From a virus (taxonomy: Duplodnaviria; Caudoviricetes), in the IMG/VR virus record IMGVR_UViG_3300035667_000058, positions 2,111-66,110 of that record: a stretch of DNA of 64,000 bases; one strand, 5' to 3'. A program made the translations under genes and the position numbers. A model generated the notes under the pieces. The model saw only the letters and a program-made list of their open reading frames with translations, was not told where the DNA came from and searched no databases. Of the stretch, positions 2,881-51,003 are shown in pieces (position 1 is the stretch's first letter; each line of letters opens with the position of its first letter).

Positions 2881-2892
2881 AACGCTGAGTCT

Positions 2893-2986
2893 TATACGCC
2901 TGGTGCATAACAGGCTAGGGGTTCCCGCCAACTATGCACGGATAGCATTGACACGGGCTACCGCTCGTCTATGCTCGGCGAGCATG
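2893..2986. promoter_or_regulatory. Immunity switch: three TATGC-N7-GCATA-like operators and a rightward promoter
   Basis: Operators at 2893-2909, 2933-2949, 2970-2986; TTGACA (2948)-16 nt-TATGCT (2970) precedes ATG 2984. Confidence 0.65.
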
Positions 2987-3705: not shown

Positions 3706-3708
3706 GCC

Positions 3709-6456: not shown

Positions 6457-7376
6457 TGCAATGGGTGCGGCTCGATAGCCAGGCGATGAGCCATCCCAAG
6501 CTCCTGCGAGCGGGCGCGGAGGCCGCTGCGCTATGGGTTTCGGGGCTCTGTCACTGCAACACCCACACGACCAATGGACGCATTGACGCCGATATGGTGC
6601 CGCTTTTGTATCCGCCACTGGGGTGGGCAAAAGCCCGCAAGGCCGCTCAGCAACTGTGCAACGTCGGTCTGTGGAGTGACCGTGGCGACCACTTTATGGT
6701 GCACGACTACGAGGACTTTCAATCTGAGGCGACCAAGGATGCCATCATCGCCAAGCGAGAATATGAACGATCTCGCAAGGCTGAGCAGCGCTCGCGCAGT
6801 CATCGTCCGGGACATGTCCCGGACAATGTCCCGGACATGTCCCACGGGACAATCACTGAAAGTCCCGGACTGTCCCCTCGCGCGGGCGTGCGCGCGGGCA
6901 CGCCCGCGTCCGACCGACCGACCGACCGACCGACCGACCGGGGGGGTTGTCCCGCTGGGACAAAAACCGGAAACGGCCACCACCCCCCACCCCAAATTCA
7001 AAACGAACCCGGACTGAGCAAGCCGGTGCATCAGTTCTGGGCGATTTGGGAAGAGCTCGCAGGTGGCGGTCCTGGAACGTGCGGATCGATCAAGGCGCAC
7101 CAGGCCGACCTTCAAGCGGCATGGGTTGCGTGCTGCAATCGCTCGGGCTGCAATCGCTCGGCGAACCCCGAGACCACCGCCGACTCGCTGTGGCGCTCGA
7201 TCGTGACGGCCTACCTCACCGATCGCCGCGCGAGTGGTAAGCGCATCGACCTTGGGTTTCTGTGCACGCGCGACTTCGCTGGCTACGCCGACCTGGCGAC
7301 CCGCAACGGGTCAACACCCTTGCCAGCGATGTACCAGGATTATCCCTTGCCTAAGATCCCTGGGGAGTCGTCATGA
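6456..7376 (+). CDS. Replication initiator (lambda O-analogue)
   Basis: WVRLD..HPK..ALW..NGRI N-terminus, internal iterons, directly upstream of DnaB. Confidence 0.7.
   Translation: MQWVRLDSQAMSHPKLLRAGAEAAALWVSGLCHCNTHTTNGRIDADMVPLLYPPLGWAKARKAAQQLCNVGLWSDRGDHFMVHDYEDFQSEATKDAIIAKREYERSRKAEQRSRSHRPGHVPDNVPDMSHGTITESPGLSPRAGVRAGTPASDRPTDRPTDRGGCPAGTKTGNGHHPPPQIQNEPGLSKPVHQFWAIWEELAGGGPGTCGSIKAHQADLQAAWVACCNRSGCNRSANPETTADSLWRSIVTAYLTDRRASGKRIDLGFLCTRDFAGYADLATRNGSTPLPAMYQDYPLPKIPGESS
6805..6963. repeat. Putative origin: GGGACA/TGTCCC iterons plus (CCGA)7 tract
   Basis: GGACATGTCCC-type units 6809-6876; CCGA x7 at 6910-6937; TTGTCCC-gct-GGGACAA at 6947-6963. Confidence 0.65.
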
Positions 7377-8773
7377 AGCCTCTTGCCATGCCTCACGACT
7401 CGCAAGCGGAGACCGCAGTACTCGGCAGCGTGCTGCTCGACTCAGAGTGCTGGGCGGTTGCGGCGGAGTTGCTACGAGCTGGTGATTTTTACGTGCCTCG
7501 CAACGGCGAGGTGTGGCGTGCGATGGCAGCGCTGATGAAGTCGGGCAGCGCGATCGACATGGTGTTGCTCACGAGCCAGTTGCGTCAGTCTGGCAGGCTC
7601 GAGCAAGCGGGGGGCGAAGAGTATTTGTTTGAGCTCACGGCGGTCATTCCCACCGTCGAGCACACCGAGCAGATGGCCAAGCGCGTCGCAGAGCTTGCGA
7701 CGATCCGTGACGTTGTCCGCGTTGCGCTCGGTGTTGCCCAAGAGGGCAGCGGGTCGATCGAGGACGTCGCAGATTATCTCGATCGTGCGACTATCGTGAT
7801 TGGGCTCGTGACCGAGCGACGCGTGGGGCAAGTGCAAGTCGCGATGCTCGGTGAGCTTCTGCACGAGAGCTACGCAGAACTCGCGCGCCGGCAGTCGCAA
7901 GGCCAGACGTTGATCGGGCATGCGACGGGGTACACCGACCTCGACCACAGTCTCGGCGGGTTTGCCAGCGGCGATCTGATCGTGCTCGCCGGCCGGCCCG
8001 GTATGGGCAAGACCGCGCTCGCCAACGGCCTAAAGCTCGGCGTTGCTCGCAACAGCGGTATGACAGTGCTCTCGCTCGAACTCGAAATGAACCGCGAGCA
8101 AATCAGTCATCGCGTGTTCAGCAGCGAGACCGACGTCGACTTGCAACGCCTGCGTAAAGTGCAGCTCGCGCACGCCGAGTTCAGCAGGCTGGCCAATGCC
8201 GCCGAGCGACTTACGGATCTGCCCGTGGCGGTGATCACGCGACGCGACACCAAGATTTCAGAGTTGCGCACCGCCGCGCGCAAGCTCGGCCGTGAGCGCG
8301 GCGGACTCAGCATGGTGGTGGTGGACTACCTGCAGCTGGTGAGGCCCGAGAGACGCGAGCAGAACCGCGAGATTGAAGTTGCCGGCATCACCAAAGCGCT
8401 CAAGAGTCTAGCGGGCGAGCTGGACTGCCCGGTGGTCGCGCTTAGCCAGCTCAACCGCGGGCTTGAGAGTCGCTCGGGCAACGACAAGCGGCCGCGGCTG
8501 TCAGACCTGCGCGAGTCGGGCGCGATCGAGCAGGACGCAGATACCGTGCTGTTTATTCATCGGGACGACCAGCGTAGCTCTGACCCCGTGCCGGACGACA
8601 TCGCGGAGATCATCATCGGCAAGCAGCGTAGCGGCGCGGTCGGGGTGGTGCGGCTGCGGTGGGTCAAAGAGTTCACGCGGTTCGAGAACCTGTATGCGCC
8701 AGCGGTCGCACAGGCGGAGCTCGGCTACGACAACAGCAGCAACGGCAACGCAAGGGGGGAGCGATGGCAATGA
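7373..8773 (+). CDS. dnaB: Replicative DNA helicase
   Basis: GRPGMGKT, VDYLQL, SQLNR, DLRESGAIEQDAD, KQRSG. Confidence 0.97.
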   Translation: MKPLAMPHDSQAETAVLGSVLLDSECWAVAAELLRAGDFYVPRNGEVWRAMAALMKSGSAIDMVLLTSQLRQSGRLEQAGGEEYLFELTAVIPTVEHTEQMAKRVAELATIRDVVRVALGVAQEGSGSIEDVADYLDRATIVIGLVTERRVGQVQVAMLGELLHESYAELARRQSQGQTLIGHATGYTDLDHSLGGFASGDLIVLAGRPGMGKTALANGLKLGVARNSGMTVLSLELEMNREQISHRVFSSETDVDLQRLRKVQLAHAEFSRLANAAERLTDLPVAVITRRDTKISELRTAARKLGRERGGLSMVVVDYLQLVRPERREQNREIEVAGITKALKSLAGELDCPVVALSQLNRGLESRSGNDKRPRLSDLRESGAIEQDADTVLFIHRDDQRSSDPVPDDIAEIIIGKQRSGAVGVVRLRWVKEFTRFENLYAPAVAQAELGYDNSSNGNARGERWQ

Positions 8774-15519: not shown

Positions 15520-15986
15520 CAGCCCTCTCGCTACGGCCCATGACCCGCGACGACGCCAACGTGCTCGTGCGCCAGTGGCACTCGCACCACAAGCCCGTTG
15601 TCGGGCACTGCTACGCGATCGGCTGCTACCGCGACAGCGAACCATGCGGCGCCGTGATCGTCGGTCGTCCCGTCGCGCCAGCGCTGCAAGACGGGCTGAC
15701 GTTTGAAGTCACGCGCTTGGTCACCGACCGCACGCCACACGCGGCATCCAAGCTACTCGGCGCGGCATGGCGCGCAGCCCGAGCCATGGGGTGCAAGCGC
15801 ATGATCAGCTACGTGCGCGCGGATGAAGCAGGCGCTTGCTATCTCGCTGCGGGATGGCGGCCAGTCGCGAGCGTGCGCGGGGAAGCATGGACGCACGGCA
15901 ACAAAGCCGCGCGCTGGCTGCCGGGCCTGTACGAGCCCAGTAGCGAGATTGTCGACCGGGTGCGATGGGAGGTTGCAGCCGCATGA
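15516..15986 (+). CDS. XF1762-family, Mom-like GNAT putative DNA modification protein
   Basis: ANVLVRQWHSHHKP, VGRPVA, EVTRLVTD, ASKLLGAAWRAARAMG, ISY...GACYLAAGW. Confidence 0.75.
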   Translation: MTALSLRPMTRDDANVLVRQWHSHHKPVVGHCYAIGCYRDSEPCGAVIVGRPVAPALQDGLTFEVTRLVTDRTPHAASKLLGAAWRAARAMGCKRMISYVRADEAGACYLAAGWRPVASVRGEAWTHGNKAARWLPGLYEPSSEIVDRVRWEVAAA

Positions 15987-20909: not shown

Positions 20910-21772
20910 CCGACTACGACGCCAGCAACCCCGCGGTCAACTACGCCCGGCATCGCGACACGGGCTTGTATGTCTTTGTGCACGCGGGCGAGGTGCCCGA
21001 AGTCGAGTGGTGCGCGCTACCATGGGTGTGGTTCAAAGAGCCCAGCGGCCGGCGCGAGTGTGCGCGCGCGTGGCTGATTGGTGAATCGAGCAACATGTAC
21101 TGCGAGCGTCACCAGCACGAGCCCAAGGTGTGCCCGTTTTGTAGAGGAGTTCCAAAAACGTGATGACGAAAGGACCTGAGCATGGCTGACATGGAGCTGA
21201 TAGCGAAGAACGCATATGCCGCCTACGGCGCTGTCACCGACCACAAAAACTACCAGGGCTTGCCGATGCCCGAGTGGGAGAATCTGACGCCGAAGATTCG
21301 CGAGGCGTGGGTCGCCGCGGCGGTCAACGTGTGGGACGCCGCAACCGCAACGCCGAAGGGAATCGAGTGACATGTCACTGCTCAACATCCTTGTCATCGC
21401 GTTCATCTTCTGTGTGCTCTTTGGCGCGTTTGGCCACGGCCGCTACGGCCCCGCGCCGAGTTGGTCGCCCGCGGGCATTGTCGTGGCTGTGCTGCTTGTC
21501 TTGTGACTGACCGGCAACCTGCACCGCTAAACACACATGACGCTCATCGCCCGATCACGCACCCCGAACCCGCGGACCCTGCGCACCGCGCTCTGCGTTG
21601 CGCTTGTGGCAGCGCTGGTCACGGCCGTTGGGAGCGCGGCGGCGCTCGGGCTTGGGCTTGAGATTGGCCGGCGGCTGTGCTTGCGGTTATGGCCCCGCTG
21701 GCCCGCGGCCGAGGTGTTCGGCGCTGCGACGGCCGATGACTTGGCCGCGCAGTGGGCAGGCGAGGGCGAGTC

Positions 21773-24178
21773 ATGAGCAGCAACAACACAGTCCGCGCTC
21801 ACTGCGAGCGTAACGGCCCTACTGGTGAGGCCGCGGCGGATCCTCCCGCGGTGGGCGCGGACGCTGTACCCGTGCGCGTGCTGTGCGGCGACATGCGGGA
21901 GGTGCTCGCGGCCATGGCGCCCGAGAGCGTGCACGCGATCGTGACCGACCCGCCGTACGGGCTTGAGTTCATGGGCAAGCAGTGGGACCAGCAGGTGCCC
22001 GGCGTTGAGTACTGGCGGGCGTGTCTGCGCGTGGCCAAGCCCGGGGCGTACTTGCTGGCGTTCGGGGGCACGCGTACGGCGCACCGGCTGGCGTGCGCGA
22101 TCGAGGATGCGGGGTGGGAGCTGCGCGATTGCGTGTGCTGGCTGTACGGGTGCGTCACGCCGGATACGAAGGCGCTCTCGCGGCGCGGCTGGCTGACGCA
22201 TGACGAAATCACGCCGCAAGACGAACTCGCACAATGGTCACCCACGAGCAGACAGATCACATGGGCACGTGCTGAGCGCATCAACGTCTGGGATTTCGCA
22301 GGTGAGTTGGTCCACCTGCAAAACCGCCACACTGATCAGCTACTGACACCGAACCATTCGGTGCACGCCGTGGTTCGTCGACATGCGCGGGACGATGCGC
22401 CGACTCGGCATGAAGTGGTGCAAGCCGGTGAGCTAAAGCCCTGCTGGCAGGTGCAGATCCCGATGTCTGGCATTCTGAACGAAGGTCGCGAGATCGATCC
22501 CGAATACGCCTATATCGTTGGGTGGTGGTTGACCGATGCCTGGCGTCACGGCGACGGCAAGGCGTGCATGTTTTCGCAGTGCAAGCCTGAGAAGCTCGCG
22601 AAGTTGAGAGCAGCTCTGTCGCCGTACGCACCGAGCGAATATGTAAAACAGGCACGCGAGCCGCAGCACTCCAACGAGCACACATTCTATGTAACCGGAC
22701 CGCTGGCGAGACGCTTGATCGAAGAGTTCCCCGCGCGCGTGCTGAGCTGGGAACAACTCGGGTGGTCGCGAGAAGCTCGCATGTCATTGATGCGTGGTCT
22801 TCTGGACGGCGATGGGACCGAGCGCGCCAGTCAGCACGGCAGCGCTTTCTGGTCCAAGGACCCTGCGCGGAGGGAAGTGGTCCTAGCCATTTGCGTCAGC
22901 ATCGGCTGGCGCGCCTACATCGACGTCGACAACGACTGTGTGAACTTCCATCGTGAGCGCGGCGCCACGCAGCTTCAAAAGCGACACCGCGACCGAGCGC
23001 CAGCACGGCCGTACAATGGCAAAGTCTGGTGCCCGACGATGCCAGAAGGCACATGGATAGCGCTTCGCAACGGGCGGCCATTCATCACGGGCAACAGTGG
23101 CTTTCCGAAATCGCATGACATCAGTAAGGCGATCGATCGTGAGCTTGGTGCGGTGAGGGAACTGACTCGTGCGGGGCGAGTCCAGCGAGACGGTTACGGC
23201 GACGATTGGGATACAGGTAGCAGCGAAAGCCGCCCGCGCTATGACGCACCCGCCACGCAAGCCGCGCAGCAGTGGCAAGGCTGGGGCACTGCGGCCAAGC
23301 CCGCATGGGAGCCCGTGTACCTCGCGCGCAAGCCGTTTCGGGGCACCGTCGCGCAGTGCGTGCTCGAGCATGGCTGCGGCGGGCTGAACATTGACGGGTG
23401 CAGGATTGGGACCAGTGAGGACTTGAACGGCGGCGCGTACTCGTCTGATGGCGGGCGCGACGGCGCTGCGTACCAGCTGCGCGGCGAATGCGGCCAGTAC
23501 AAACAGCCGCTCGGCCGATGGCCGGCGAATCTGGCGCTGGACGAACGGGCGGCAGAAATGCTGGATGCTCAGACGGTCGGGCAAGTGCACGGGGCGGGCT
23601 GCCGTCGAGCGGGCTCAAGTGCTCCGCGCGAGAGCACTTCGGGCGAGCACGTCTATAACCCGCGGGTCACCACGACCGGCGCAATGCATCGCTTCGGCGA
23701 CGACGGCGGCGCCTCACGTTTCTTTTACACGAGCAAGGCGTCCCGCTCCGAGCGCGAAGCCGGGCTCGAGCGCTTCACGCCCGCCATCGTCAACGACGGC
23801 CGCGACACCAGCATGGACACGCCCTACCAGCGCGGCGACACCTTACGCAAGTGCCTTCATCCCACGGTCAAACCGATCTCCCTGATGCGCTGGCTCGTGC
23901 GCCTGGTCACCCCGCCAGGCGGCATCGTGCTCGACCCGTTCACGGGCTCGGGCAGCACGGGCGTAGCCGCAGTACTCGAGGGCGCGCGGTTCATCGGTGT
24001 TGAACTCTCGCCCCAGTACGCCGAGCTCGCGACCGCGCGCATCGCGCACGCCAGCGACGAGGACGACGGCCCGCAGCTGACGCTGTTCGACAAGCAGGAG
24101 ATAGCCCGGCCGGTCAGGCCCGCGCAGACAAGCCTGTTTGACGACGTGCCCAATGACGAGCACGAGGGCGCCCAATGA
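21773..24178 (+). CDS. N6A/N4C (beta-class) DNA methyltransferase containing an intein
   Basis: IVTDPPY, WLYG|SGFPKS split by the intein, HPTVKP, LDPFTGSGSTG. Confidence 0.92.
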   Translation: MSSNNTVRAHCERNGPTGEAAADPPAVGADAVPVRVLCGDMREVLAAMAPESVHAIVTDPPYGLEFMGKQWDQQVPGVEYWRACLRVAKPGAYLLAFGGTRTAHRLACAIEDAGWELRDCVCWLYGCVTPDTKALSRRGWLTHDEITPQDELAQWSPTSRQITWARAERINVWDFAGELVHLQNRHTDQLLTPNHSVHAVVRRHARDDAPTRHEVVQAGELKPCWQVQIPMSGILNEGREIDPEYAYIVGWWLTDAWRHGDGKACMFSQCKPEKLAKLRAALSPYAPSEYVKQAREPQHSNEHTFYVTGPLARRLIEEFPARVLSWEQLGWSREARMSLMRGLLDGDGTERASQHGSAFWSKDPARREVVLAICVSIGWRAYIDVDNDCVNFHRERGATQLQKRHRDRAPARPYNGKVWCPTMPEGTWIALRNGRPFITGNSGFPKSHDISKAIDRELGAVRELTRAGRVQRDGYGDDWDTGSSESRPRYDAPATQAAQQWQGWGTAAKPAWEPVYLARKPFRGTVAQCVLEHGCGGLNIDGCRIGTSEDLNGGAYSSDGGRDGAAYQLRGECGQYKQPLGRWPANLALDERAAEMLDAQTVGQVHGAGCRRAGSSAPRESTSGEHVYNPRVTTTGAMHRFGDDGGASRFFYTSKASRSEREAGLERFTPAIVNDGRDTSMDTPYQRGDTLRKCLHPTVKPISLMRWLVRLVTPPGGIVLDPFTGSGSTGVAAVLEGARFIGVELSPQYAELATARIAHASDEDDGPQLTLFDKQEIARPVRPAQTSLFDDVPNDEHEGAQ
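22151..23095 (+). mobile_element. Intein (315 aa) with LAGLIDADG homing endonuclease
   Basis: Starts CVTPDT; LTPNH block B; GWWLTDA and GLLDGDG; ends VWCPTM...FITGN followed by Ser. Confidence 0.9.
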
Positions 24179-25094: not shown

Positions 25095-25529
25095 ATGGCC
25101 CGGCGTAGCAAATTCACCCCGGCCACTGGCGCCAGGATATGCAAGCTCGTGGCGCTTGGCGTCACCCTTGATGCCGCTGCTGGCCATGAGGGCGTGAGCA
25201 AGCAGACCGTCTACAACTGGCGCGACCAGGGCCGCGCCGGCCGCACGGGCGGGTATGTGACGTTCGCCAAGCAGTTGCATCAGGCACTCTCCAAGGCCGA
25301 GGTGCAGCAAACCAAGAACGTCATCGCCATGGGCAAGCGCGACTGGAAAGCGTCAGCGTGGTGGCTCGAGCGACGCCGGCCCGAGGTGTACGGCGACCGT
25401 TCCAAGATCGAACACCACCTGATGGGTGAGGTCGAAAGAGTGCTCGATGTTGCAAAAGCCACGCTCCCCGCCGGGCCGTACGCCGTCCTACTCGGCGCGC
25501 TATCTAAGCCAGATAGCGGCGCAGCGTAG
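25095..25529 (+). CDS. terS: Terminase small subunit
   Basis: HTH (GVSKQTVYNW) and DWKASAWWLERR; precedes terL. Confidence 0.8.
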   Translation: MARRSKFTPATGARICKLVALGVTLDAAAGHEGVSKQTVYNWRDQGRAGRTGGYVTFAKQLHQALSKAEVQQTKNVIAMGKRDWKASAWWLERRRPEVYGDRSKIEHHLMGEVERVLDVAKATLPAGPYAVLLGALSKPDSGAA

Positions 25530-27087
25530 GCTTGACGAGCTGCGCCTGGCGCAGGCGCCCGCGGTCAGCCACCCGTTCGCGGCAGAGCGCGAGCGCTGCG
25601 CCGAGAGCTTTGCGTACTTCATGCAGGCGGCCTGGCCCAGCGTTGACAGTCAGCCGCTCATCTGGGGCTGGCACAACGATGCCATTGTCGAGCACCTTGA
25701 AGCCGTCACGCGCGGGCACATCCGTAAGCTGCTGATCAACGTGCCACCGGGCGCAACCAAGACCATCAGCGTGCAAATCATGTGGCCGTCATGGGAGTGG
25801 ATTTGTAACCAGCATCCGCGCACCGAGCACAACCCGACCGGATTGCGTCCAGACCTGCGCTACATCTACTCCACATACAGCGAGCAGCTCGCGCTCGACA
25901 AAGCGCTTGAGCACCGCCGGCTACTTGAAAGTGAGTGGTACCAGGAACGCTTTGGTGACCGGTGGCAGCCCAGCCCGGACCAGTGGGGGCAAGCCAAGTT
26001 CAGCAACCAGCAAGGCGGCTGGCGGCTGGCGACAAGCGTTGGCGGCATCGCTACCGGTCAGCATGCGGATAGAAAGGTGCTCGACGATCCCATCAAGCCC
26101 CAAGACGTATTGGCGGGCACGGTCGGCACCAAGAAATGGGCGCTCGATAACGCGTGGACGTTCTGGACGCAGACCATGGGTTTGCGCAACACCGGGCCCA
26201 ACACCAAAGAGATTGTGATCATGCAGCGCATTCACGAGCGCGACGTCGCGGGCCGGTGCATCGCGGAGTTCCCCGATTACGAACTGCTCGTGATCCCGCA
26301 GCGCTTCGAGAGCAAGCACCCATACGTGCGGCGCACGGTGCTCGAGCGTGACATCGACGGCGAGCCGGTCAGAACGTGGCAAGACCCGCGCACCGACGAG
26401 GGCGAGCTCATGTGCCCCGAGCGCTTTCCGCCGGCTGACGTCGAACGCCGCGCGAAGATTCTTGGCTCGCAAGGCTGGGCTGCGCAAGAGCAGCAGCGGC
26501 CGAGCCCCGCGGGCGGCAGCATGTACCACCGCGAGCAGTTCAAGCACTGGTCGATCGTGCCGAGCGAAGGCACATGGGTCATCAGCGGCGACTGCACCTT
26601 CAAAGCGCTCGACAACTCCGATTGGGTGGTGCTGCAGGTGTGGTGTGCCCGCGGCCCTGACTTCTACCTGATTGACCAGGTGCGCGATCGCATCGATGTG
26701 CTTGGGACGTGCAGCGCAATTCAATCGCTACGCGCCAAGTGGACGCGCGTCGGGGCGATCCTAATCGAGGACGCGGCCAACGGCCCGGCCGTCACGCAGA
26801 TAATGAGCAAGAGCCTGCCGGGCATGAAGCTGGTGCGACCGCTCGGCGGCAAGATCGCGCGCGCGAACGCGTCAGCCGTCTACCACGAATCGGGCAACGT
26901 GTACCTGCCCCTGCCGCAGCGCGCACCATGGGTGCACGACTATATCGAGGAACACGTGGGGTTCCCGTTCGGCGGCAACGATGACCAGGTGGACGCGCAG
27001 AGCCAAGCGATCAATCACCTGGCGATGCAGGCCGCAGACTACGAAGCCATGCTCGCGACCATGCGTAACTTGGGGGTGGCGGATTGA
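25426..27087 (+). CDS. terL: Terminase large subunit (start uncertain)
   Basis: NVPPGATKT, VLDDP, IMQRIHE, GDCTFK, IEDAANG, NDDQVDA. Confidence 0.95.
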   Translation: MRSKECSMLQKPRSPPGRTPSYSARYLSQIAAQRRLDELRLAQAPAVSHPFAAERERCAESFAYFMQAAWPSVDSQPLIWGWHNDAIVEHLEAVTRGHIRKLLINVPPGATKTISVQIMWPSWEWICNQHPRTEHNPTGLRPDLRYIYSTYSEQLALDKALEHRRLLESEWYQERFGDRWQPSPDQWGQAKFSNQQGGWRLATSVGGIATGQHADRKVLDDPIKPQDVLAGTVGTKKWALDNAWTFWTQTMGLRNTGPNTKEIVIMQRIHERDVAGRCIAEFPDYELLVIPQRFESKHPYVRRTVLERDIDGEPVRTWQDPRTDEGELMCPERFPPADVERRAKILGSQGWAAQEQQRPSPAGGSMYHREQFKHWSIVPSEGTWVISGDCTFKALDNSDWVVLQVWCARGPDFYLIDQVRDRIDVLGTCSAIQSLRAKWTRVGAILIEDAANGPAVTQIMSKSLPGMKLVRPLGGKIARANASAVYHESGNVYLPLPQRAPWVHDYIEEHVGFPFGGNDDQVDAQSQAINHLAMQAADYEAMLATMRNLGVAD

Positions 27088-27110
27088 GCAGGGTGGTCCC
27101 CCGGGGTCAT

Positions 27111-27356
27111 CTACGGCGCTTCACCAGCGGCCTTGGCGAGCCTCGATTTGCGCAGCCGAACGGCTGCGCGCTGTGCGCTCTGCAACTGCTTGGGAAGCGC
27201 GGAGACCTCGGAGGCGGCATTGAGCACGGCGCGGCACCAGGCTTGCCGGCTCATGCCCGCAGCCGCGGCTGCGGCTGCCTCCCACGCAATCACCTCCTGG
27301 CGGTCGGCTTTGATGGTCACGGGCACGTGCACGTCTTTGGGGTCGGGCTCGTTCAT
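27111..27356 (-). CDS. Ribbon-helix-helix DNA-binding protein, last gene of the antisense island
   Basis: VPVTIK strand then EVIAWEAAA...GMSRQAWCRAVL helix-turn-helix pattern typical of RHH proteins. Confidence 0.55.
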   Translation of the reverse strand: MNEPDPKDVHVPVTIKADRQEVIAWEAAAAAAAGMSRQAWCRAVLNAASEVSALPKQLQSAQRAAVRLRKSRLAKAAGEAP

Positions 27357-27654
27357 GTTCCGGGGCCCTCCCCAACGATCGACGTCCACTCGGGGTCGGC
27401 TTCGACGGCCAGCCGCGCGCAGGTGAGGCACGCGCCGTAGCGCTCGGCGCAGTTGAGCGGGTACACGCCGCGATTGCCAGCCTTGGTGTGGCTGTCGCGA
27501 TGCTGCCGCGGCATCGTCTCTATCTGGACTTCGAGCGCAGCCCCACAGCCGCAGGGCCGCTCGCTGGCATCGCCGTCATCCGAACTCGTCAACGCTTCGA
27601 TTGTCGTCGCCATACGCGCCTTCCCTCTTTCGCAAAAACAGCAACCCCGGGCGC

Positions 27655-28041
27655 TCAGTCCTCGTGCGGCAGCATGAACGTCAAGCACTGCTCTGCGTGG
27701 TCGCCGCCGTGCACAACCGCTTTGAGTCGCAGCGAACTCGCGGCAACCTCGACCCGAAACGATATCGCAATGTCGCGCGCGCGCACGGGGCGGCTCAAGA
27801 TGGCGAGGTAAAGCGCCTCAAGCACGGCGAAGTAGCACGCAGCCATCGTTGGCGCGCCGTGCTGACCGGGTTCGATTGCAGCGGCAAACGCAGCTGCCGT
27901 GCACGCAATGTGGGCGCTGGCAAACGGGCTTGTGCGCCAAGCATTCGCAAAGTCGCCGATTGTGAGGTCGCAAAGCACGCCGTCGGCGATGGCCTGCGCG
28001 CGGGTGTAGCTGTAGATCACTGCGGCGCGGCGCTCGCTCAT
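27655..28041 (-). CDS. DUF6573-like protein
   Basis: YSYTRAQAIADGVL near the N-terminus, LTFMLPHED at the C-terminus. Confidence 0.6.
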   Translation of the reverse strand: MSERRAAVIYSYTRAQAIADGVLCDLTIGDFANAWRTSPFASAHIACTAAAFAAAIEPGQHGAPTMAACYFAVLEALYLAILSRPVRARDIAISFRVEVAASSLRLKAVVHGGDHAEQCLTFMLPHED

Positions 28042-28932
28042 GGCTCGCCGGGCGCCATGAAGCGCACCGCGCCGTTGGTTTGATTCTCGGTCCACACCGG
28101 CTCGCCGTTGCAATAGGTTGCACGCTCAGTCCGTCCGTCGGACTCGGCTTGCTCGGATGTTTCGCGGATCGGACCGTACCATCCACTCGTCAGATCGTAT
28201 GCTCGGTACATCATGGCGCCCCAACCTCCCTTGCCGGCACGTGCATGCGGCAATCGTCAATGCGCTCGGGCTTGCGGCCCTGCAGCGCGAACAGTTCGAA
28301 CGCGCGGCGTCCGTCCTCGGGCATCCGAAAGCGCAGCGACAACCCGTGCGCGCTGACCGCAATGTCGGCCGCGCGGTTACAAAGGTCCGCGAGCTCGCAG
28401 CGGTCTCGGTCGGTCATGGTCATGTTGCCTGGACTCGCTGACAGTCGGTGCACTGCGCCCACCGCACACTGTTTTGCCCCTGCCCGCGCCCGCCGCGGGT
28501 GCAGCAACGACTGCACACTAGGCGCCCGCAGCCCGAGCCACAACGAAAGCGCCGCGAACCCTGCGTGTCTCGCTGACAGCGTTCGCACTTCTTATCGGTC
28601 ATGGTCATTACATCCACCTGCCCTCGTACAGCGCCAGCAACTCGTCGCACTGCGCCGCGCGCTTGCGGGGCACCAACCAGCCCGCATCGGACAGCTCACC
28701 AAAGCCCCGGTCTCCAGGCTGAGATACTATGATGCTACGCAGCGCCCTGTAGAGCGCCGGTGTGGCACACTCAAACCTACGCGCGGGAAGTAACCACGGC
28801 TTGCTCATGGGTTGCGCTCCGATTGCATCACCCTGACAAGCGGCAAGCCCGTGCGGGGCGAGCATGGCAAACTCAGCGTGCCAACGGCGGCTGCGATTCG
28901 TTCAGATACAGCGTTGTTCATGTCCACCTCTA

Positions 28933-28964
28933 TATCGTAACCCCGGGAGGTTACGATAGCAAGG
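28933..28964 (-). promoter_or_regulatory. Promoter/operator 1 (GTAACC-N6-GGTTAC, 28937-28954)
   Basis: 10-bp perfect arms; minus strand TTGCTA-17-TACGAT, then GAGG and ATG at 28921. Confidence 0.75.
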
Positions 28965-29443
28965 GGGGGGCATCTCAAACCCACTGCCCGTGCGCGAGTG
29001 CGTTGCCTTCGGCGCGCTGCAGGCGCGCGATCGTCTCAAGCCACTCGCCGTATGTGCGCCCGTAGCGCTCCGCGCGCGGCGCTTCCCTCGTTGCGAGATA
29101 CGCGATGCGCTCGGCCTTGCGGGCGGCAATCAGTTCTTGGCGGTGCATGTGCAATCCTCTGCTCACGACGTACCACCGAGAAAGCCCTCGGTGAACCATG
29201 CGAGCGCTTGATCGACGTCAGACGATGGTGCGTCCGCAGGCAGTCGCCACTGCGGCGCTGGGCCATACACGAGTTCGCCGCAGCCGGTGGTGAACGCGTG
29301 GTGCGCATCATTCCAGCCGACTTTCGGACCGATGTAGAGCTTGCGATACGCGGACCCGCTCGCCACCCACCATTGCTTACTGTGCTGCTTCACGGCTTGC
29401 TTCCTAACCCTTCCCACATCCGTTCCAATGCTACCCATATATT

Positions 29444-29461
29444 GTAACCCCGGAAGGTTAC
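29444..29461 (-). promoter_or_regulatory. Promoter/operator 2
   Basis: GTAACC-ccggaa-GGTTAC inside TTGCAC-18-TACAAT. Confidence 0.75.
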
Positions 29462-29806
29462 CCAGTGCAAGAGGTCCGGTCAGTACTCGGCAAGCGTCTC
29501 CGGCTCCGAGCGCTCGTTGTAGGCAAGCAGGCTACCGGGGGCGGGGTTGCGCGTGTCCGCGTCCAGAGCGAACCAGCTCGCGAACTGCGCGCGCGTGCCG
29601 GTGGCCGTCGCCGCAACCAGGCCGGGCATGCGCCTGGTTGTCGCGAAAGCAAACACTGCGATCCCCAGCGCCTGCAACGCCGCCGAGGCCTCCTGTTCCG
29701 TGCCCTTGATAACCAAGCTGAAATGCGCGAGCGCGAACATGGTTGCGAGCTCTGACTGAATGTCCATCCCGGTACTCCGATTGTTGCTGCTGTCCACTTC
29801 TAAAGA

Positions 29807-29824
29807 GTAACCCTCCGGGGTTAC
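29807..29824 (-). promoter_or_regulatory. Promoter/operator 3
   Basis: GTAACC-ctccgg-GGTTAC inside TCGCAA-17-TACTCT. Confidence 0.7.
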
Positions 29825-29878
29825 ATTTGCGAGGGGTGGGCGCTGCAATTCGACATTGGGCCCCGGTGCGGAAGACCC

Positions 29879-29907
29879 TTGCGCACTACCCCGCGGCGGG
29901 GTATTAT
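29879..29907 (+). promoter_or_regulatory. TA promoter with palindromic operator
   Basis: TTGCGC-17-TATTAT enclosing TACCCCGC-g-GCGGGGTA (29887-29903). Confidence 0.65.
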
Positions 29908-29909
29908 GA

Positions 29910-30194
29910 ATGGTGGTCAACGTAGTGGAGTTCAGCGACGCGGTGGTCAAGGCAATGCCGAAGCTGCCGCCGCAAGTGGCGGTGAAGCTGCGCCTGTGGG
30001 CCGGTGCCGTGCGCGCCGCGGGCATTGACCAGGTGCGCAAGCAACAACACGGGTACCGCGACAAGCCGCTCAGCGGAGATCGCAAGGGCCAGCACTCGAT
30101 ACGGCTCAACCGCGCTTACCGCGCGTTTTACACCGTGGTGCGCAACGAGGTGACGGTGGTGCGGGTGATTGAAGTCAACAAGCACGAATATTGA
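29910..30194 (+). CDS. higB: RelE/HigB-family toxin
   Basis: DKPLSGDRKGQHSIRLNRAYRAFY...VIEVNKHEY. Confidence 0.85.
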   Translation: MVVNVVEFSDAVVKAMPKLPPQVAVKLRLWAGAVRAAGIDQVRKQQHGYRDKPLSGDRKGQHSIRLNRAYRAFYTVVRNEVTVVRVIEVNKHEY

Positions 30195-30209
30195 TGAGCG
30201 GGGGGGCAA

Positions 30210-30530
30210 GTGGAGATGGCAAAAACGCGACAAGACAAAGCGATGGCGGCACTCGAGCGTGCGGCCGGTGGACCGTTGACGATCGGGCGCGCATTGTGGG
30301 CGATACGCGAGTGCGACGAGATCAGTCAGGCGGTGTTCGCCAAGCGGCTCGGCATCTCTGCGCAACACCTCTGCGACATCGAGAAAGGCCGGCGAGCGCC
30401 GCGAGCGGCGCGAGCGGCGAAGTGGGCGAAGGTGCTGGGGTACTCACCCGAGCAGTTCGCGGAGCTCGCGCTCCAGGCCGAACTCGACGCAGCGGGCTTG
30501 AAGCTACGCGCACGTGTGAAGGCAGCGTAA
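30210..30530 (+). CDS. higA: HigA-like XRE antitoxin
   Basis: ISQAVFAKRLGISAQHLCDIEKGRR; follows the toxin. Confidence 0.8.
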   Translation: MEMAKTRQDKAMAALERAAGGPLTIGRALWAIRECDEISQAVFAKRLGISAQHLCDIEKGRRAPRAARAAKWAKVLGYSPEQFAELALQAELDAAGLKLRARVKAA

Positions 30531-30601
30531 GCCGCGAAGGCGGCAGGCGAATTCGCGTAGGCTGGTGACACCGCGCCGGCTGCCCGCTAGACGTTGCAGA
30601 C

Positions 30602-32341
30602 GTGCTCGGCAGCTACCTACAAAGCGCCCTGTTGCGCCTCGACGGCTGGGAAAACGCGGTCACGGGGCTCGGCACCGCGCTCGACAAGACGGTTGCCGCC
30701 CTGTTCAGCCGCAACGGCGCTGCGGCCTATGGCGATGAGTACTTCGGGCAGCTCTACGAAGACGACCCGCTCGCGCGCCGCATCTGCGAAAAAATCCCCG
30801 ACGAGATGCTACGCGCCGGGTTTGACCTGCTCATGGGCGATGCGGACAACGCCCAGCAGCTTGCGACCAGCGTCCGCGACGCGCTCAAGGACCTGCACGC
30901 GATCGCGCGCGTCAAAGACGCACTCGTGTGGGAACGCGTGCACGGTGGCGGCGCGGTGTTTATCGGCGCCGAGGACGGGGTGGGCGATTCAGCGCTGCCG
31001 CTCGACGAAGAGCGCTTGCAAGCGATCACGCACCTGACGGTGATCGACAAGCCCACCATGGTTGCAAAGACATGGTATGGGCCGGCGGAGCGCGGCGCCG
31101 GCCGCCCTGCGACGTGGGAGATCACGCCGGTCGACGCTGGCGGCAGCGGCCCGATCGAGGTGCATGAAAGCAGGCTGCTGCTGTTTCCAGGCGGTCGCGT
31201 CACGCACAAGCGCCGGATCGAGCTCAGGGGGTGGGGGCAGAGCACTCTGCGCGCGATTCACGACGCGCTGCGCGATTACAACATGAGCTGGGCCGGCGTG
31301 TCGCACATGCTGCAATCGGCCAATCAAGATGTCTGGTACATGGACGGTCTGAAGAACGCGCTCGCGAGCGGCAGCGCGGGCATGCGCGAGTTTTTCAGCG
31401 CGCGCTTTGCGATGGCCCAACAGAAGATGGGCCCCAACCATGCGATCGCGCTGGATTCTGAGCGCGAGAAATTCGAGCGTCACCCGTCGACGCTCACGGG
31501 CATCCCTGAGACGCTGCAGCAGGTCTGTCTGCGCATGAGCGCGATCAGCGACATGCCCCTGACGGTGCTGTTCGGCATGAGTCCCGCGGGGATGAACGCG
31601 ACCGGCGAAAGCGACCTGCAAATCTGGCACTCGGCCGTCGGCGCGATGCAGGGCGAGAAGCTGCAGCCGGCGCTCGAGCGCTTGATCCGCTTGCTGATGA
31701 TCAGCGACAAGGGGCCCACGGGCGGCGAAGAAATCGAAGGCTGGTCGATCCGGTTTCGCGCGCTGCGCACGCTCAGCGAAATCGAGCAAGCGGACCTGCG
31801 GGCCAAGCAGGCGGGTACCGATAAGCTGTACGTGGACATGACGGCGCTGTTGCCCGAAGAGGTCGCGACCAACCGGTTCCGGCCCGAGGGCTTCTCGACT
31901 GCTACCAGCATCGATCTCGACGTGCGCAAGCAGATCATGGCAGCCGAGTTGCAGCGCATGGACGAGCCTGACGATCCCGCGAAGGATGACAGCGCCGCGG
32001 GTGACCCCGCACCTGACGGCGGGGCGCCTGCGGGGGGCGACACCACCACCGTGGCCGACACGGCGATGAACGGTGCGCAGGTGGCGTCGTTGCTCGAGGT
32101 GATCCAGGCCGTCGCGGCAGAGACCATCCCGCGCGCAACGGGCGTGCAGCTGCTCATTCGCGCATTCCAACTCACCGCTGAGCAAGCCGAGTTGCTCATG
32201 GGCGACGTGGGCAGGGGCTTCGAACCCAAAAAACCGGCCGCCCCGCAGGCATTTGGCGGCCTGCCAAAGCCGCCCGTGCCACCCGAACCCGACCCGGCCA
32301 CCACGCCGCCCCCACCAAACACCACCAAGCCCAAGCCGTGA
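30602..32341 (+). CDS. Portal protein (DUF1073 family)
   Basis: DGWENAVTGLG, MPLTVLFGMSPAGMNATGESD. Confidence 0.9.
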   Translation: MLGSYLQSALLRLDGWENAVTGLGTALDKTVAALFSRNGAAAYGDEYFGQLYEDDPLARRICEKIPDEMLRAGFDLLMGDADNAQQLATSVRDALKDLHAIARVKDALVWERVHGGGAVFIGAEDGVGDSALPLDEERLQAITHLTVIDKPTMVAKTWYGPAERGAGRPATWEITPVDAGGSGPIEVHESRLLLFPGGRVTHKRRIELRGWGQSTLRAIHDALRDYNMSWAGVSHMLQSANQDVWYMDGLKNALASGSAGMREFFSARFAMAQQKMGPNHAIALDSEREKFERHPSTLTGIPETLQQVCLRMSAISDMPLTVLFGMSPAGMNATGESDLQIWHSAVGAMQGEKLQPALERLIRLLMISDKGPTGGEEIEGWSIRFRALRTLSEIEQADLRAKQAGTDKLYVDMTALLPEEVATNRFRPEGFSTATSIDLDVRKQIMAAELQRMDEPDDPAKDDSAAGDPAPDGGAPAGGDTTTVADTAMNGAQVASLLEVIQAVAAETIPRATGVQLLIRAFQLTAEQAELLMGDVGRGFEPKKPAAPQAFGGLPKPPVPPEPDPATTPPPPNTTKPKP

Positions 32342-47876: not shown

Positions 47877-49046
47877 ATGGATCTCAAACTCGATCAATGG
47901 GCAACAGTGCTGCCGACTGGGTTCCCCGGTGCGATCGCACCATCGACCGGAAAAAAGCAGGAGGGCTTTGCCAACGGCGAAGAGCCCGCGGCGGGGCATG
48001 TGAATCACGTATTTCAGGCAGTCGCAGATGTGCAGCAAGAAGTCAGAGCGGCGATCGAGGGCGCCGGGCTGACCCTGTCGAACCTCGACAATGCGCAACT
48101 GGACCGCGCGGTCAAAACGCTGATCGGCCGCGGAGCGGAAAAGCGCGCGCTCAGTGGCTTCCAAAGCATTTCCACAGGCGTGGCGCAGGCGCTCAATGCG
48201 CTGGCATCGGACGGCACAAGCGTAGTGGCGGTGGGCAATGCCGGCGCGGTCACATCGTGGGCTGGCACGGTCAGCGGCGCTTGGGTCACGCGCGCGCCCG
48301 GGTCGATCTATGGTGGCAACTTTGCAGCCGTGTACTTCGATGCAGTGCACAACCTGTGGATCGCAGGCGGCGCGGGAGGTGAGATCCAGACAGCTCCGCC
48401 TGCCATGACCCCTTGGACTCGGCGAAACAATACGGGCGGCGACGTCACGAGCATCGCGGGCAGCGCCGCGGGAGTGATCGTGGCCGGTATGGCCGGTGCG
48501 CCCTATCTCAAGCGCAGCGCCGACGGTGTGACGTACACGAGCCCAACCCCATCGCACGCGGCCAGTATTCACGAAGTGGCCTACGGTGCCGGCGTGTTCG
48601 TGGCCGTGACGGTTGACGGTTATGTAATGTACTCGGTCGATGGCACCACGTGGACCACTGGCATATCGTCACCAAGCGCAGGCGGCCAGGGTCACGTTGC
48701 CTATCACCCGGACTGGGGTTTCATTGCGACCTACGAGCAATTTGCGTTTCACTCCATAAACGGCATGACGTGGACCAGCATTCAGAACGCCATGCCGACG
48801 GCTGAGAGTGGGTTCTCGGCAGCCCGGGGCGCGCTTGTCCTTACGCCGCACGCATGGCGGGTTATATTCACCGGCGCGACTTCAGGCTTCTGGGGCTGGC
48901 ATACAACGACCGTCAACGCAGCACCCGACTTCAAAACTGCCGGTGCGCGGATGGGTGCTATCGCCCGGATTTGCATCTTCAATGACCAGGCATGGGCCGT
49001 CAACGGCGCCGATGACAAGGTCTACGTTTCAAGCCCGATCGCATGA
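47877..49046 (+). CDS. Tail fibre/receptor-binding protein with beta-propeller-like repeats
   Basis: SxDGxTW repeats, VAYGAGVFVAV. Confidence 0.7.
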   Translation: MDLKLDQWATVLPTGFPGAIAPSTGKKQEGFANGEEPAAGHVNHVFQAVADVQQEVRAAIEGAGLTLSNLDNAQLDRAVKTLIGRGAEKRALSGFQSISTGVAQALNALASDGTSVVAVGNAGAVTSWAGTVSGAWVTRAPGSIYGGNFAAVYFDAVHNLWIAGGAGGEIQTAPPAMTPWTRRNNTGGDVTSIAGSAAGVIVAGMAGAPYLKRSADGVTYTSPTPSHAASIHEVAYGAGVFVAVTVDGYVMYSVDGTTWTTGISSPSAGGQGHVAYHPDWGFIATYEQFAFHSINGMTWTSIQNAMPTAESGFSAARGALVLTPHAWRVIFTGATSGFWGWHTTTVNAAPDFKTAGARMGAIARICIFNDQAWAVNGADDKVYVSSPIA

Positions 49047-49057
49047 TCGCGCCGAGC

Positions 49058-49672
49058 CTAGCGCGTCACATCAACTAGGGCTGGCTGCCCACGGGCCCAG
49101 TTGAGCGCCACCACTTCACCATCGGCATTGAACACTGGCGCGCCCGAATCCCCGGCGCAGGCGCAACCGTCGGCGTCGTACTCGCGGCCCTGCGTGTAGG
49201 CGCCCGAGCGCCGTGTTACCGCGCGCGTAACCTGTGCGCCGGTGCAGCCGTAGCCGACCAGAGTGAGCGCATCGCCAAGTGCAGGCGGCGTCGTAGCCAT
49301 ACGCGCTGGCTGCGCAGTCAGTAGCGGCGACGAGAGTTCAAGTAGCGCCACGTCTTCGCCGCCCGGACCGCCGACCCAGCGCGGGAGTGCAAGATAGCGA
49401 ACACCACCGATCTTGACCTGCATGTCCGGGTGCACACAGTGCGCGGCCGTCATGATCTCAGACTGGCTCACAAGCACGCCCGAGCAGCCCACCGCGGCGG
49501 CACCTGCAAAGACCTGCACAACTGAGGGATCTTCGGACGGCTCACCGATACAAGCCAGGGTGGGCTCGCCGCTCGCAGCACCGGATGCGCCGACCTGCGT
49601 AGAGCAGGCGCCTGCCAAGAGTGCCAGCCACAACCTCAGTGCGTGCGCCAGGATCGTCAGTTTTCTAGCCAT
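49058..49672 (-). CDS. Trypsin-like (S1) serine protease lipoprotein
   Basis: LLAGAC lipobox; CSGVLV..MTAAHC (His), DVALL (Asp), GDSGAP (Ser). Confidence 0.88.
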   Translation of the reverse strand: MARKLTILAHALRLWLALLAGACSTQVGASGAASGEPTLACIGEPSEDPSVVQVFAGAAAVGCSGVLVSQSEIMTAAHCVHPDMQVKIGGVRYLALPRWVGGPGGEDVALLELSSPLLTAQPARMATTPPALGDALTLVGYGCTGAQVTRAVTRRSGAYTQGREYDADGCACAGDSGAPVFNADGEVVALNWARGQPALVDVTR

Positions 49673-49681
49673 ACTCTCATT

Positions 49682-49699
49682 GTAACCGTAGAGGGTTAC
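49682..49699 (-). promoter_or_regulatory. Promoter/operator 4 in front of the protease gene
   Basis: GTAACC-gtagag-GGTTAC overlapping TACAAT, which ends 6 nt before the ATG at 49672 (leaderless geometry). Confidence 0.7.
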
Positions 49700-49836
49700 C
49701 AAATACTAGGCCGGACCGTCCTTTTCCGCGATGGACCCAATCAAGCCGGTGGGCTCCTGTGCGCTTACGTTTCCGCGTGTAGTCAACGTGGCTGCCCTAT
49801 TGCGGTCGATGCCAAACGCCAATATCCAACGATGAT

Positions 49837-51003
49837 GTGACCCTGAACTACGCCGACCCCGTAACCGGGACCAACGTCCCGCTCCGATCGCGCACACTCG
49901 CGGGTGAACAGGTGCCAGGTCATGACGTGCTGGCACTGCCGGGCACGGTCGAAACCGACATCACCGCGACCAAGACCGCGACGCAATCGATCGTTACGGC
50001 GCTTGGGTCTTTCCTTTCCACGCTCGCAGGAGCGGTGACCGCGAACCGCGTCGCAGTGGACCTCGCGACCACCCCGACAGCGAACCTCGCAACACTCGCC
50101 ACTGCACCGGGCAAGCTGGACACCATCATCACGGCGCTCGGCGGCTACCTGTCTACGCTTGCGGGTGCAGTCACGGGGTCGCGCGTCGCGGTCGATCTAC
50201 CTGCGACTCCGACCGCGAACCTCGCAACGATCGCGACCGGCCCGGCCAAGCTCGATACGATCATCACCGCCCTTGGATCGTACCTTTCTACGATTGCCGG
50301 TGCGATCGTCGCCGGCCGCGTTGCAGTGGACCTCGCGACCACCCCGACCGCGAACCTCGCGAGCATCGCGGCCGACAGCGCGACCACCAACACCAAGCTC
50401 GACGCACTGCATGCCGACCTTGCGCTCGTGCCGGTCAGTCTACCTGCGACTCCGACCGCGAACCTCGCAACGATCGCGACCGGCCCGGCCAAGCTCGATA
50501 CGATCATCACCGCCCTTGGATCGTACCTGTCCACGCTCGCAGGCGCGGTCACGGCCGCTCGCGTCGCGGTGGACCTCGCGACCACCCCGACCGCGAACCT
50601 CGCAACACTCGCGGGCGCGATCACTGCTGCGCGGATGGCGGTCAACGTCGACAGTGTTACCACCGGCAAGCTCGACACGCTGCATACCGACCTTGCGGCG
50701 CTTGCCACCAACCAAGGCGTCCCGAGTGGCGGCGCGATCATGGGCTACGTCGGCGGCATCAACACGACCACCGATACAGCATTCGCGAGCAAGACCACAG
50801 TGCGCGGCATCGTGATTACAAACCTCGACCTGGTCAACAACCTGCTGATCAAAAAGGCCGCAGCACCAACCAGCACCGACGTCGATACGGTCACGGTTTT
50901 GCCAGGCCGCAACTCGCCGTTTTTGCCATGTACTGACCCAAGCGTGTTCAAGCTGCGCAGCTCGTCGGGCAGCACGACAGCCGCTTGCTACGCGGGCGCG
51001 TGA
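49837..51003 (+). CDS. Thr/Ala-rich repeat fibre-like virion protein
   Basis: 45-aa repeats; exact 90-bp duplication 50196-50285 / 50439-50528. Confidence 0.65.
   Translation: MTLNYADPVTGTNVPLRSRTLAGEQVPGHDVLALPGTVETDITATKTATQSIVTALGSFLSTLAGAVTANRVAVDLATTPTANLATLATAPGKLDTIITALGGYLSTLAGAVTGSRVAVDLPATPTANLATIATGPAKLDTIITALGSYLSTIAGAIVAGRVAVDLATTPTANLASIAADSATTNTKLDALHADLALVPVSLPATPTANLATIATGPAKLDTIITALGSYLSTLAGAVTAARVAVDLATTPTANLATLAGAITAARMAVNVDSVTTGKLDTLHTDLAALATNQGVPSGGAIMGYVGGINTTTDTAFASKTTVRGIVITNLDLVNNLLIKKAAAPTSTDVDTVTVLPGRNSPFLPCTDPSVFKLRSSSGSTTAACYAGA

Follow-up and report, generated by a model that had tools for sequence, protein, structure and literature searches.

Small ribbon–helix–helix (RHH) proteins serve as repressors in the immI region of phage P22, where Arc and Mnt act at operators lying between the −35 and −10 elements and Arc is made from the operon that it represses. 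In a recent preprint, Aca14 is described as an RHH anti-CRISPR-associated (Aca) regulator whose inverted repeat overlaps the −10 element of its own operon and of neighbouring anti-defence operons (bioRxiv 10.64898/2026.07.27.740549). Anti-defence genes of archaeal viruses share an early regulatory sequence with Aca8 as the regulator (Nat Commun 2024, PMC11065993). Here we describe a 64,000-nucleotide stretch of phage DNA (the window; bases 2111–66110 of a single 66,110-bp virus record, IMGVR_UViG_3300035667_000058, with 65% G+C and rated complete by CheckV) in which the perfect palindrome GTAACC-N6-GGTTAC recurs within promoter-like cassettes directly upstream of antisense accessory genes. Three cassettes lie in an island of eleven small genes, A to K, between the terL and portal genes, and the last of these, gene K, encodes a candidate RHH repressor of the cassettes.

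The P22 system consists of a single regulatory region controlling an antirepressor, whereas the cassettes described here are dispersed over variable cargo. As in the Aca14 system, a small (here putative) RHH protein stands in the place of the regulator in an operon of small accessory genes, the repeat overlaps the −10 element, and the regulon would span more than one operon; the helical extension beyond the RHH core reported there has a counterpart in the basic C-terminal helix of our model of K. The two differ in that no acr gene is known here, in that the relatives of K are NikA-like, in that the repeat here is a GC-rich 6-N6-6 palindrome as opposed to the AT-rich repeat described there, and in that each cassette here appears to be a full promoter, often with a leaderless start, one of them lying 20 kb away in the tail module. 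The archaeal-virus system resembles this one in that many small single genes share a promoter and a repressor site, and in that the regulator was inferred as the only small protein common to two genomes carrying the same motif. There, however, the promoters are of the transcription factor B recognition element (BRE)/TATA type, Aca8 is a winged helix–turn–helix (wHTH) protein, and early expression and some functions have been validated, whereas the present case is predicted from sequence, with promoters of bacterial type and a candidate RHH protein as regulator.

An inverted repeat in the promoter of the candidate regulator's own operon, as in Aca systems, is found here: three cassettes lie upstream of K, and two lie directly before its homologue in a second phage. 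Since no acr gene is known here, membership of the Aca class is not established, and we file the locus as a putative, undescribed RHH lineage with a distinctive, portable and often leaderless promoter–operator cassette, governing an Aca-like accessory regulon.

The palindrome and its promoter-like flanks

A reading of this DNA made from sequence alone, without database searches (hereafter the sequence-only reading), had placed eleven minus-strand open reading frames (ORFs) of 38–128 amino acids between terL and portal, and these are present at 27111–29767 (Table 1). The palindrome positions that it gave (28937, 29444 and 29807) all hold exact copies, with plus-strand spacers CCGGGA, CCGGAA and CTCCGG, respectively, and a fourth exact copy that it did not list lies at 49682–49699. 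Searching the window with up to two mismatches returned four matches against 0.56 expected, a number reached in none of 100 shuffles. The whole 66,110-bp genome holds four exact copies and none with one or two mismatches; its ten matches with three mismatches are GC-rich and look like chance. GTAACC or GGTTAC hexamers occur 19 times in the genome, eight of them within the four palindromes, all of which are intergenic and directly upstream of minus-strand ORFs.

The palindrome recurs beside a K homologue in a second phage. Scanning JGI metagenome contigs with an alignment of K identified one locus, L078 (15,942 bp read of a 26,701-bp contig, 66% G+C), encoding a K homologue at 58% identity. This sequence contains 13 palindrome matches with up to three mismatches against 2.75 expected, with no shuffle of 200 reaching 13; we treat the four matches with three mismatches as chance and count nine copies. 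The K gene of L078 is immediately preceded by two cassettes (9881 and 9947); behind the others come small acidic ORFs, genes for a DUF2786/DUF7168 protein and for a RadC JAB protein, and a lone antisense ORF following a head-morphogenesis gene. By blastp of all ORFs, the window and L078 have in common only a methyltransferase, terS (32%), K and one weak 28% pair; their terL and portal genes are unrelated, and they share neither a helix–turn–helix (HTH) protein nor a cargo gene. Conservation of K and the cassette between the phages, with no cargo gene shared, fits the proposal of the sequence-only reading that the island was built from promoter-plus-gene cassettes.

The 13 sites (four in the window and nine in L078), oriented by their downstream genes, yield the consensus CCcTTGac..g-GTAACC-cTgg.g-GGTTAc-..Ttag, that is, TTGACN-N2 followed by a palindrome with the core TAACC-N6-GGTTA, the right arm of which is overlapped by a −10 element, TAYNNT. 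The TTG stands 5 nt before the palindrome in 9 of the 13 sites, and TAnnnT, formed by the last three palindrome bases and the next three, is present in 12. The palindrome had been described as lying in the promoter spacer and overlapping the −10 box; it indeed occupies the whole spacer, and the −10 box begins with the final three bases of the palindrome. Scored by eye, the three island promoters match 6–8 of 12 consensus positions (TTGCTA-17-TACGAT, TTGCAC-18-TACAAT and TCGCAA-17-TACTCT). Because the flanks are asymmetric, with CCCTTGAC upstream and CTTTAG downstream, every site points at its own gene. An nhmmer profile of the cassette, run on the genome, L078 and L077 (a phage with a more distant K homologue), recovered 13 of 13 sites, always with the higher score on the gene-facing strand, and detected no copies beyond these. 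In all of this the palindrome behaves as a putative operator built into a repeated promoter cassette.

Seven of the 13 sites have a start codon, ATG or GTG, exactly 9 nt downstream of the palindrome (Table 1). With this spacing the start codon begins 7 nt after the −10 element, at the distance usual for a transcription start, and we infer that these transcripts are leaderless; this suggests leaderless initiation in about half of the copies. Initiation on leaderless mRNAs at GUG is known from mycobacteria, and the fixed distance, which predicts leaderless mRNAs, may hint at the host. The cassettes at 8192 and 9030 of L078 have leaders of ~40 nt with GGAG, the gene behind cassette 2 has an alternative GTG start at 29393 preceded by AGGAAG, and the GTG at 28927 behind cassette 3 is in frame with an ATG at 28921.

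We also considered whether the palindromes are RNA hairpins, with a 6-bp stem and a 6-nt loop, that act in read-through transcripts as signals for RNA processing, stability or translation. On this view, transcripts from upstream promoters would include cassettes 2 and 3, and each hairpin would stand 5–15 nt before a start codon. However, the asymmetric flanks, which are conserved, correspond to −35 and −10 elements and not to RNA features, copies also stand before first and isolated genes (49682 and, in L078, 15796) where no upstream transcript is expected, and the arm sequence itself is conserved, without compensatory changes. An RNA role is thus very improbable.

Probable kinship of gene K with ribbon–helix–helix proteins

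K is laid out as an extended segment (PVTIKA), a helix (residues 19–31), a turn (AAGMS), a second helix (37–51) and a basic C-terminal helix (54–78). Only three homologues were found among 5.8 billion clustered proteins, and a search of 1.84 billion representatives with a six-member K profile retrieved 106 proteins with E of 1e-3 or better. Pfam assigned 34 of 105 such relatives to the NikA-like family (PF21983), five to DUF6290, four to RHH_1, two each to RelB and TacA1, and one each to ParD and HicB; a few unrelated families also appeared, such as HNH_3 (four relatives). One close relative, P0016, links the groups, matching the K profile at E 6e-13 and the NikA-like family at E 8e-6 (26.3 bits against a cut-off of 27). 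In an alignment of 24 family members, the alternating PVT[IL]KA segment is conserved, as are the two helices that follow it and the G-MSRQ turn between them.

AlphaFold (AF2) modelled the K monomer as an extended N-terminal segment and two helices, with a core predicted local distance difference test (pLDDT) score of 82, and the full model adds the basic C-terminal helix. The strand appears as extended coil in the monomer, as expected if it pairs only in a dimer; a two-copy prediction scored 0.38 against a mark of 0.42 and was not used either way. Structure neighbours of K in the Atlas were CopG, RHH_1, NikA, TacA and MobC clusters, with template-modelling (TM) scores of 0.50–0.60 that we take as a lead only. 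Many relatives (P0008, P0012, P0013, P0017, P0019 and others) are 120–130 amino acids long with two matched stretches, that is, tandem domain duplications; these are possibly single-chain dimers, and the two stretches fit a domain that works in pairs.

On this transitive evidence we read K as a divergent NikA-like RHH protein. The RHH pattern that the sequence-only reading saw in the last gene is thereby supported indirectly, through the relatives, the alignment and the modelled layout, with K itself below Pfam detection. No RHH family was detected by Pfam at E up to 10 in K and five close homologues, a search of the genome with PF21983 at E up to 10 returned nothing, K contains no HTH domain in Pfam, and a search of PDB sequences with the K profile gave nothing below E 0.18.

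Among described RHH families, the NikA-like/MobC relaxosome accessory proteins (PF21983) are nearest in sequence, by the relatives and P0016 as above; the differences are that K itself falls below detection, that it has no relaxase or oriT context, and that the sites here lie in promoters. RelB, ParD and TacA antitoxins share the fold class and repress their own promoters by way of palindromes located there, and a few K relatives match these families; K, by contrast, has no recognizable toxin partner (its neighbour J belongs to no family) and is the last of eight coupled genes. We rejected K as the RHH antitoxin of a type II pair: J and the other island genes match no toxin family in Pfam, PHROGs or PADLOC, and nothing lies between K and the end of terL.

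Searches for further carriers bear on the specificity of K. No match was found in IMG/VR with K as a single query, and searches with K alignments returned one contig only, L077/L181. Its K homologue, at 46% identity, has a TLQ strand in place of T[IL]K and lies in an early operon beside recombination genes; a de novo search for repeated palindromes in L077 found none. The altered strand in a phage without the sites is a hint of specificity. An IMG/VR scan for TTG-N5-palindrome returned 102 stretches, most of which by far held a single match of the kind expected by chance; six had at least two sites with at most one mismatch, and none of these had cassette flanks or a K homologue.

These results also address the possibility that the palindrome is a host transcription-factor site or a host-specific promoter element, common to the two phages through related hosts, with K unrelated to it. 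Phage morons are often wired into host regulons, and the DNA is known only from a soil metagenome run. Yet K is the final gene of the island in the window, and its homologue in L078 is directly preceded by two cassettes; the PVT[IL]K strand residues are kept together with the site, whereas the TLQ variant occurs without it; and the IMG/VR scan found none of its multi-site stretches with cassette flanks or a K homologue. We regard a host factor as improbable. Three IMG/VR contigs of 57–61% G+C (L117 at 2390–2435, L159 at 457–502 and L161 at 717–762) each carry two exact GTAACC-N6-GGTTAC sites 10 bp apart; those in L117 adjoin an integrase gene and an AlpA-like gene, with no K homologue. In these contigs the palindrome seems to have been put to a separate use.

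A proposed negative-feedback circuit

We propose that GTAACC-N6-GGTTAC is the operator within a portable promoter cassette, the 17-bp spacer of which it fills, and that the four cassettes drive accessory genes running against the structural genes, with three nested promoters covering the 11-gene island and one driving a secreted peptidase in the tail region. Because the fourth cassette precedes the peptidase gene, the regulon would extend beyond the island. K, as the last, translationally coupled island gene, would be made from all three island promoters, which would put the island and the distant peptidase under one negative feedback. We infer that K binds the palindromes and occludes RNA polymerase, so that a burst of accessory-gene expression in the absence of K, at entry or induction, would be followed by shut-off or a low steady level. 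The circuit as stated, with K as binder and repressor, is in our judgement narrowly probable. The operator cassettes, the RHH lineage and the co-occurrence in L078 favour the Aca-like autoregulated island of the sequence-only reading, whereas the counter-defence role that it gave the cargo is unsupported.

Several results weigh against this proposal. A consensus promoter scan of 26900–30700 and 48800–50000 at a 9-of-12 threshold found no sigma70-like site, and cassette 4 lacks a −35 element; support for the three sigma70-like promoters claimed earlier comes from conservation of the cassette in L078. K matches nothing in Pfam or PHROGs, and PDB fold searches (Foldseek and VIA-align, with full and trimmed K models) gave generic helical matches only, with best Z of 5.3 and 4.7. 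The whole 53-kb L077 record contains no TAACC-N6-GGTTA site, so that homologues of K co-occur with the palindrome in L078, with its nine copies, and not in L077. Co-occurrence rests on two genomes, in which the module may have been inherited together and may represent one evolutionary event, and another shared regulator could lie in the remaining 10.7 kb of the L078 contig. The cargo shows no anti-defence homology, none of the eleven island proteins having matched PHROGs at E 0.01 or better. Palindromes of 6-N6-6 form are equally typical of HTH dimers, and the phage encodes four further candidate DNA binders, three with HTH_3 domains and one PadR-like (Table 1).

The last two points would suit a variant in which the circuit is the same but the binder is one of these four HTH or wHTH proteins (the HigA-like XRE protein, the CI-like HTH_3 protein, a second HTH_3 protein or the PadR-like protein) and K is, for example, a DNA-binding accessory near the packaging genes. 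The variant would also account for the position of cassette 1 in the divergent region adjoining a higBA-like pair and for the K homologue of L077 without the palindrome, and the NikA-like family includes relaxosome accessory proteins rather than repressors. It is nevertheless quite unlikely, as the 16 kb of L078 in which the nine cassettes lie encode a homologue of K and none of any of the four proteins, the CI-like gene region is without a GTAACC site, and the higBA-like promoter carries a different perfect palindrome; because that pair has a palindrome of its own, the HigA-like HTH is the weaker candidate for the GTAACC sites.

With K as the repressor, its deletion or over-expression should switch the whole gene set at once. 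Most small phage accessory genes are orphans beyond the reach of homology, and a shared promoter–operator tag groups them by regulation. The K family, with 106 members in 1.84 billion representatives and no Pfam model, would be a second RHH lineage among regulators of Aca type, most of which are HTH proteins. Tentatively, we extend the proposal further: a K-family RHH protein and its leaderless promoter–operator cassette may form a portable regulatory chassis, such that any gene acquiring the ~45-bp cassette joins a phage-wide, self-limiting early regulon, even when antisense in packaging or tail modules. If this is true, the sequence of the cassette marks the full set of accessory, counter-defence or takeover genes in these uncultured soil phages, both of which are known only from metagenomes, and the route from regulatory sequence to anti-defence genes taken with archaeal viruses would extend to bacterial phages, with an undescribed regulator family.

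Cargo genes, the higBA-like pair and the genome setting

All eleven island ORFs have the coding bias of terL and portal, with a G+C content of 0.67–0.83 at third codon positions (GC3) against 0.51–0.67 at second positions (GC2), and genes D–K are tightly packed, with stop/start overlaps mostly of ATGA or TAATG. DUF6573, in gene I, is the sole Pfam match above cut-off among the eleven proteins; the nearest Atlas clusters are also DUF6573, and tblastn of this protein against plasmids and phages gave no match. Gene F, with nine cysteines in 62 amino acids, is zinc-ribbon-like. No island protein matched PADLOC (0 of 11), which, run on these and six L078 cassette proteins, returned generic domain matches only (HTH, trypsin and JAB), all outside the island. 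A literature search found no paper on DUF6573, PF20213 or RadC with phage anti-defence. The anti-CRISPR or anti-defence label given earlier to the cargo is thus neither supported nor refuted, with no match in PHROGs or PADLOC, DUF6573 alone in Pfam, and no Acr-specific library searched.

The fourth cassette is followed, ~20 kb from the island, by the peptidase gene, which is antisense among plus-strand tail genes; read from its sequence, the protein has an N-terminal signal peptide and a lipobox-like LLAGAC. A secreted trypsin-like peptidase is not what is typical of counter-defence, and it is one reason to ask whether the circuit and K hold but the cargo consists of lysogen-expressed morons (surface or periplasmic proteins, superinfection exclusion, or toxin–antitoxin-type defence) kept at a low steady level by K feedback. 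The phage is probably temperate, because it encodes an integrase (by a PHROGs match) and a CI-like HTH_3 protein; a RelE/XRE pair occupies the same terL–portal gap; and negative autoregulation gives homeostatic expression. Against morons, islands for counter-defence or takeover are the better fit for orphan proteins that are tiny and evolve fast, the L078 cargo includes strongly acidic proteins (isoelectric point (pI) 4.1–4.4), a RadC JAB protein and a DUF2786 protein, and no island protein matches a PADLOC defence model. On balance we consider moron cargo rather unlikely, and a role of the cargo in host takeover or counter-defence possible but doubtful.

In L078, the acidic cassette ORFs lie at 7009–7233 (−), 7925–8182 (+) and 15577–15786 (−). 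The first two have 16–18 acidic residues in 74–85 amino acids, and two of the three start with the same MATN N-terminus.

Gene K and terL are convergent, with 23 bp between their stop codons (27087–27111) and no terminator-like hairpin, and island transcripts may for this reason run antisense into terL. A terminator scan of the two regions covered by the promoter scan found one terminator-like site in each, no more than expected from shuffles.

Table 1 Features of the window and of L078
Feature	Sequence	Coordinates	Strand	Description
terL	Window	25426–27087	+	Confirmed by Pfam
Gene K	Window	27111–27356	−	81 aa, basic; candidate RHH repressor of cassettes
Gene J	Window	27353–27613	−	86 aa, acidic, 5 Cys; stop overlaps K start (ATGA); no family
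Gene I	Window	27655–28041	−	128 aa, DUF6573; Pfam E 3.4e-8, 34.1 bits against cut-off 27
Gene H	Window	28038–28214	−	58 aa, acidic, pI 4.5; no family
Gene G	Window	28211–28423	−	70 aa; no family
Gene F	Window	28420–28608	−	62 aa, 9 Cys; no family
Gene E	Window	28608–28808	−	66 aa; no family
Gene D	Window	28805–28927	−	38 aa from ATG or 40 aa from GTG; no family
Cassette 3	Window	28937–28954	−	−35-like TTGCTA 2 nt upstream; −10 TACGAT; GTG 28927 exactly 9 nt downstream of palindrome
Gene C	Window	28975–29148	−	57 aa, basic; no family
Gene B	Window	29163–29438	−	91 aa, or 76 aa from GTG 29393; no family
Cassette 2	Window	29444–29461	−	−35-like TTGCAC 3 nt upstream; −10 TACAAT; ATG 5 nt downstream of palindrome
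Gene A	Window	29480–29797	−	95 aa from ATG 29767 or 105 aa from GTG 29797; no family
Cassette 1	Window	29807–29824	−	GTAACC-CCGGAG-GGTTAC (minus-strand reading); −35-like TCGCAA 2 nt upstream; −10 TACTCT; in-frame GTG 29797 exactly 9 nt downstream of palindrome
higBA promoter-like element	Window	29879–29907	+	TTGCGC-17-TATTAT; ATG 2 nt after −10
RelE/HigB-like toxin gene	Window	29910–30194	+	Divergent from cassette 1; PHROG 1213 'RelE-like toxin' E 2.9e-8; Pfam toxin models below cut-offs
XRE-type HTH antitoxin-like gene (HigA-like)	Window	30210–30530	+	Pfam HTH_3 E 2.1e-10
Portal	Window	30602–32341		Confirmed by Pfam
Trypsin-like peptidase, cassette 4 gene	Window	49058–49672	−	204 aa; Pfam Trypsin_2 E 1.8e-16, Trypsin E 1.1e-14
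Cassette 4	Window	49682–49699	−	Exact palindrome; −10 TACAAT; −35 weak; ATG 49672 exactly 9 nt downstream
CI-like gene	Window	2317–2931		HTH_3
HTH_3 gene	Window	54944–55279		HTH_3
PadR-like gene	Window	59427–59693		PadR
Integrase	Window	62522–63784		PHROGs match
Exact palindromes	L078	7818, 7898, 9030, 9881		
One-mismatch palindromes	L078	7243, 8192, 15796		
Two-mismatch palindromes	L078	7570, 9947		
Start codons 9 nt after palindrome	Window	29797, 28927, 49672		GTG, GTG and ATG, respectively
Start codons 9 nt after palindrome	L078	7243r, 7818r, 7898, 15796r (palindrome positions)		

The terL–portal gap also holds a higBA-like pair that the sequence-only reading did not mention. It has the features of the HigBA type, namely toxin-first order, a RelE-like toxin with an XRE-HTH antitoxin, and a palindrome in its own promoter: a different perfect palindrome, 17 bp long and unique in the window, takes up the spacer of the promoter-like element (TACCCCGC-g-GCGGGGTA, 29887–29903), and it is expected to be the autoregulatory site of the XRE antitoxin. 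The HigA-like protein had no match in IMG/VR.

The sole public run that holds the region is a soil-metagenome DNA run, its likely source, with no RNA run listed, and the 'myxobacterial' host named earlier is not established. No close relative of the phage was found in 50,697 phage records, IMG/VR or one genome per GTDB species, collections from which its own or near-identical records may have been excluded. Against the phage records, blastn of 27000–30600 gave no match and the best terL match was 39.5%; the portal query returned 71 loci in IMG/VR, the best at 27% over the full length and the rest over a C-terminal segment only, and five loci in the GTDB genomes, again over a C-terminal segment only. 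As with terL and portal, terS was confirmed by Pfam.

Elsewhere in the window, an 808-amino-acid DNA methyltransferase (21752–24178, +) matches methyltransferase models at residues 40–134 and 448–775, with an insert of ~310 amino acids between them that resembles an intein by eye; in the homologue from L078 the insert is instead of low complexity, and the N-terminus is ParB-like. A second methyltransferase, in the early region (4620–5795, +), is a ParB_N domain fused to an MT-A70 methyltransferase. A DUF2303 protein (3307–4623, +) and its upstream neighbour are common to L077 (2797–4115, −), at 50% and 46% identity.

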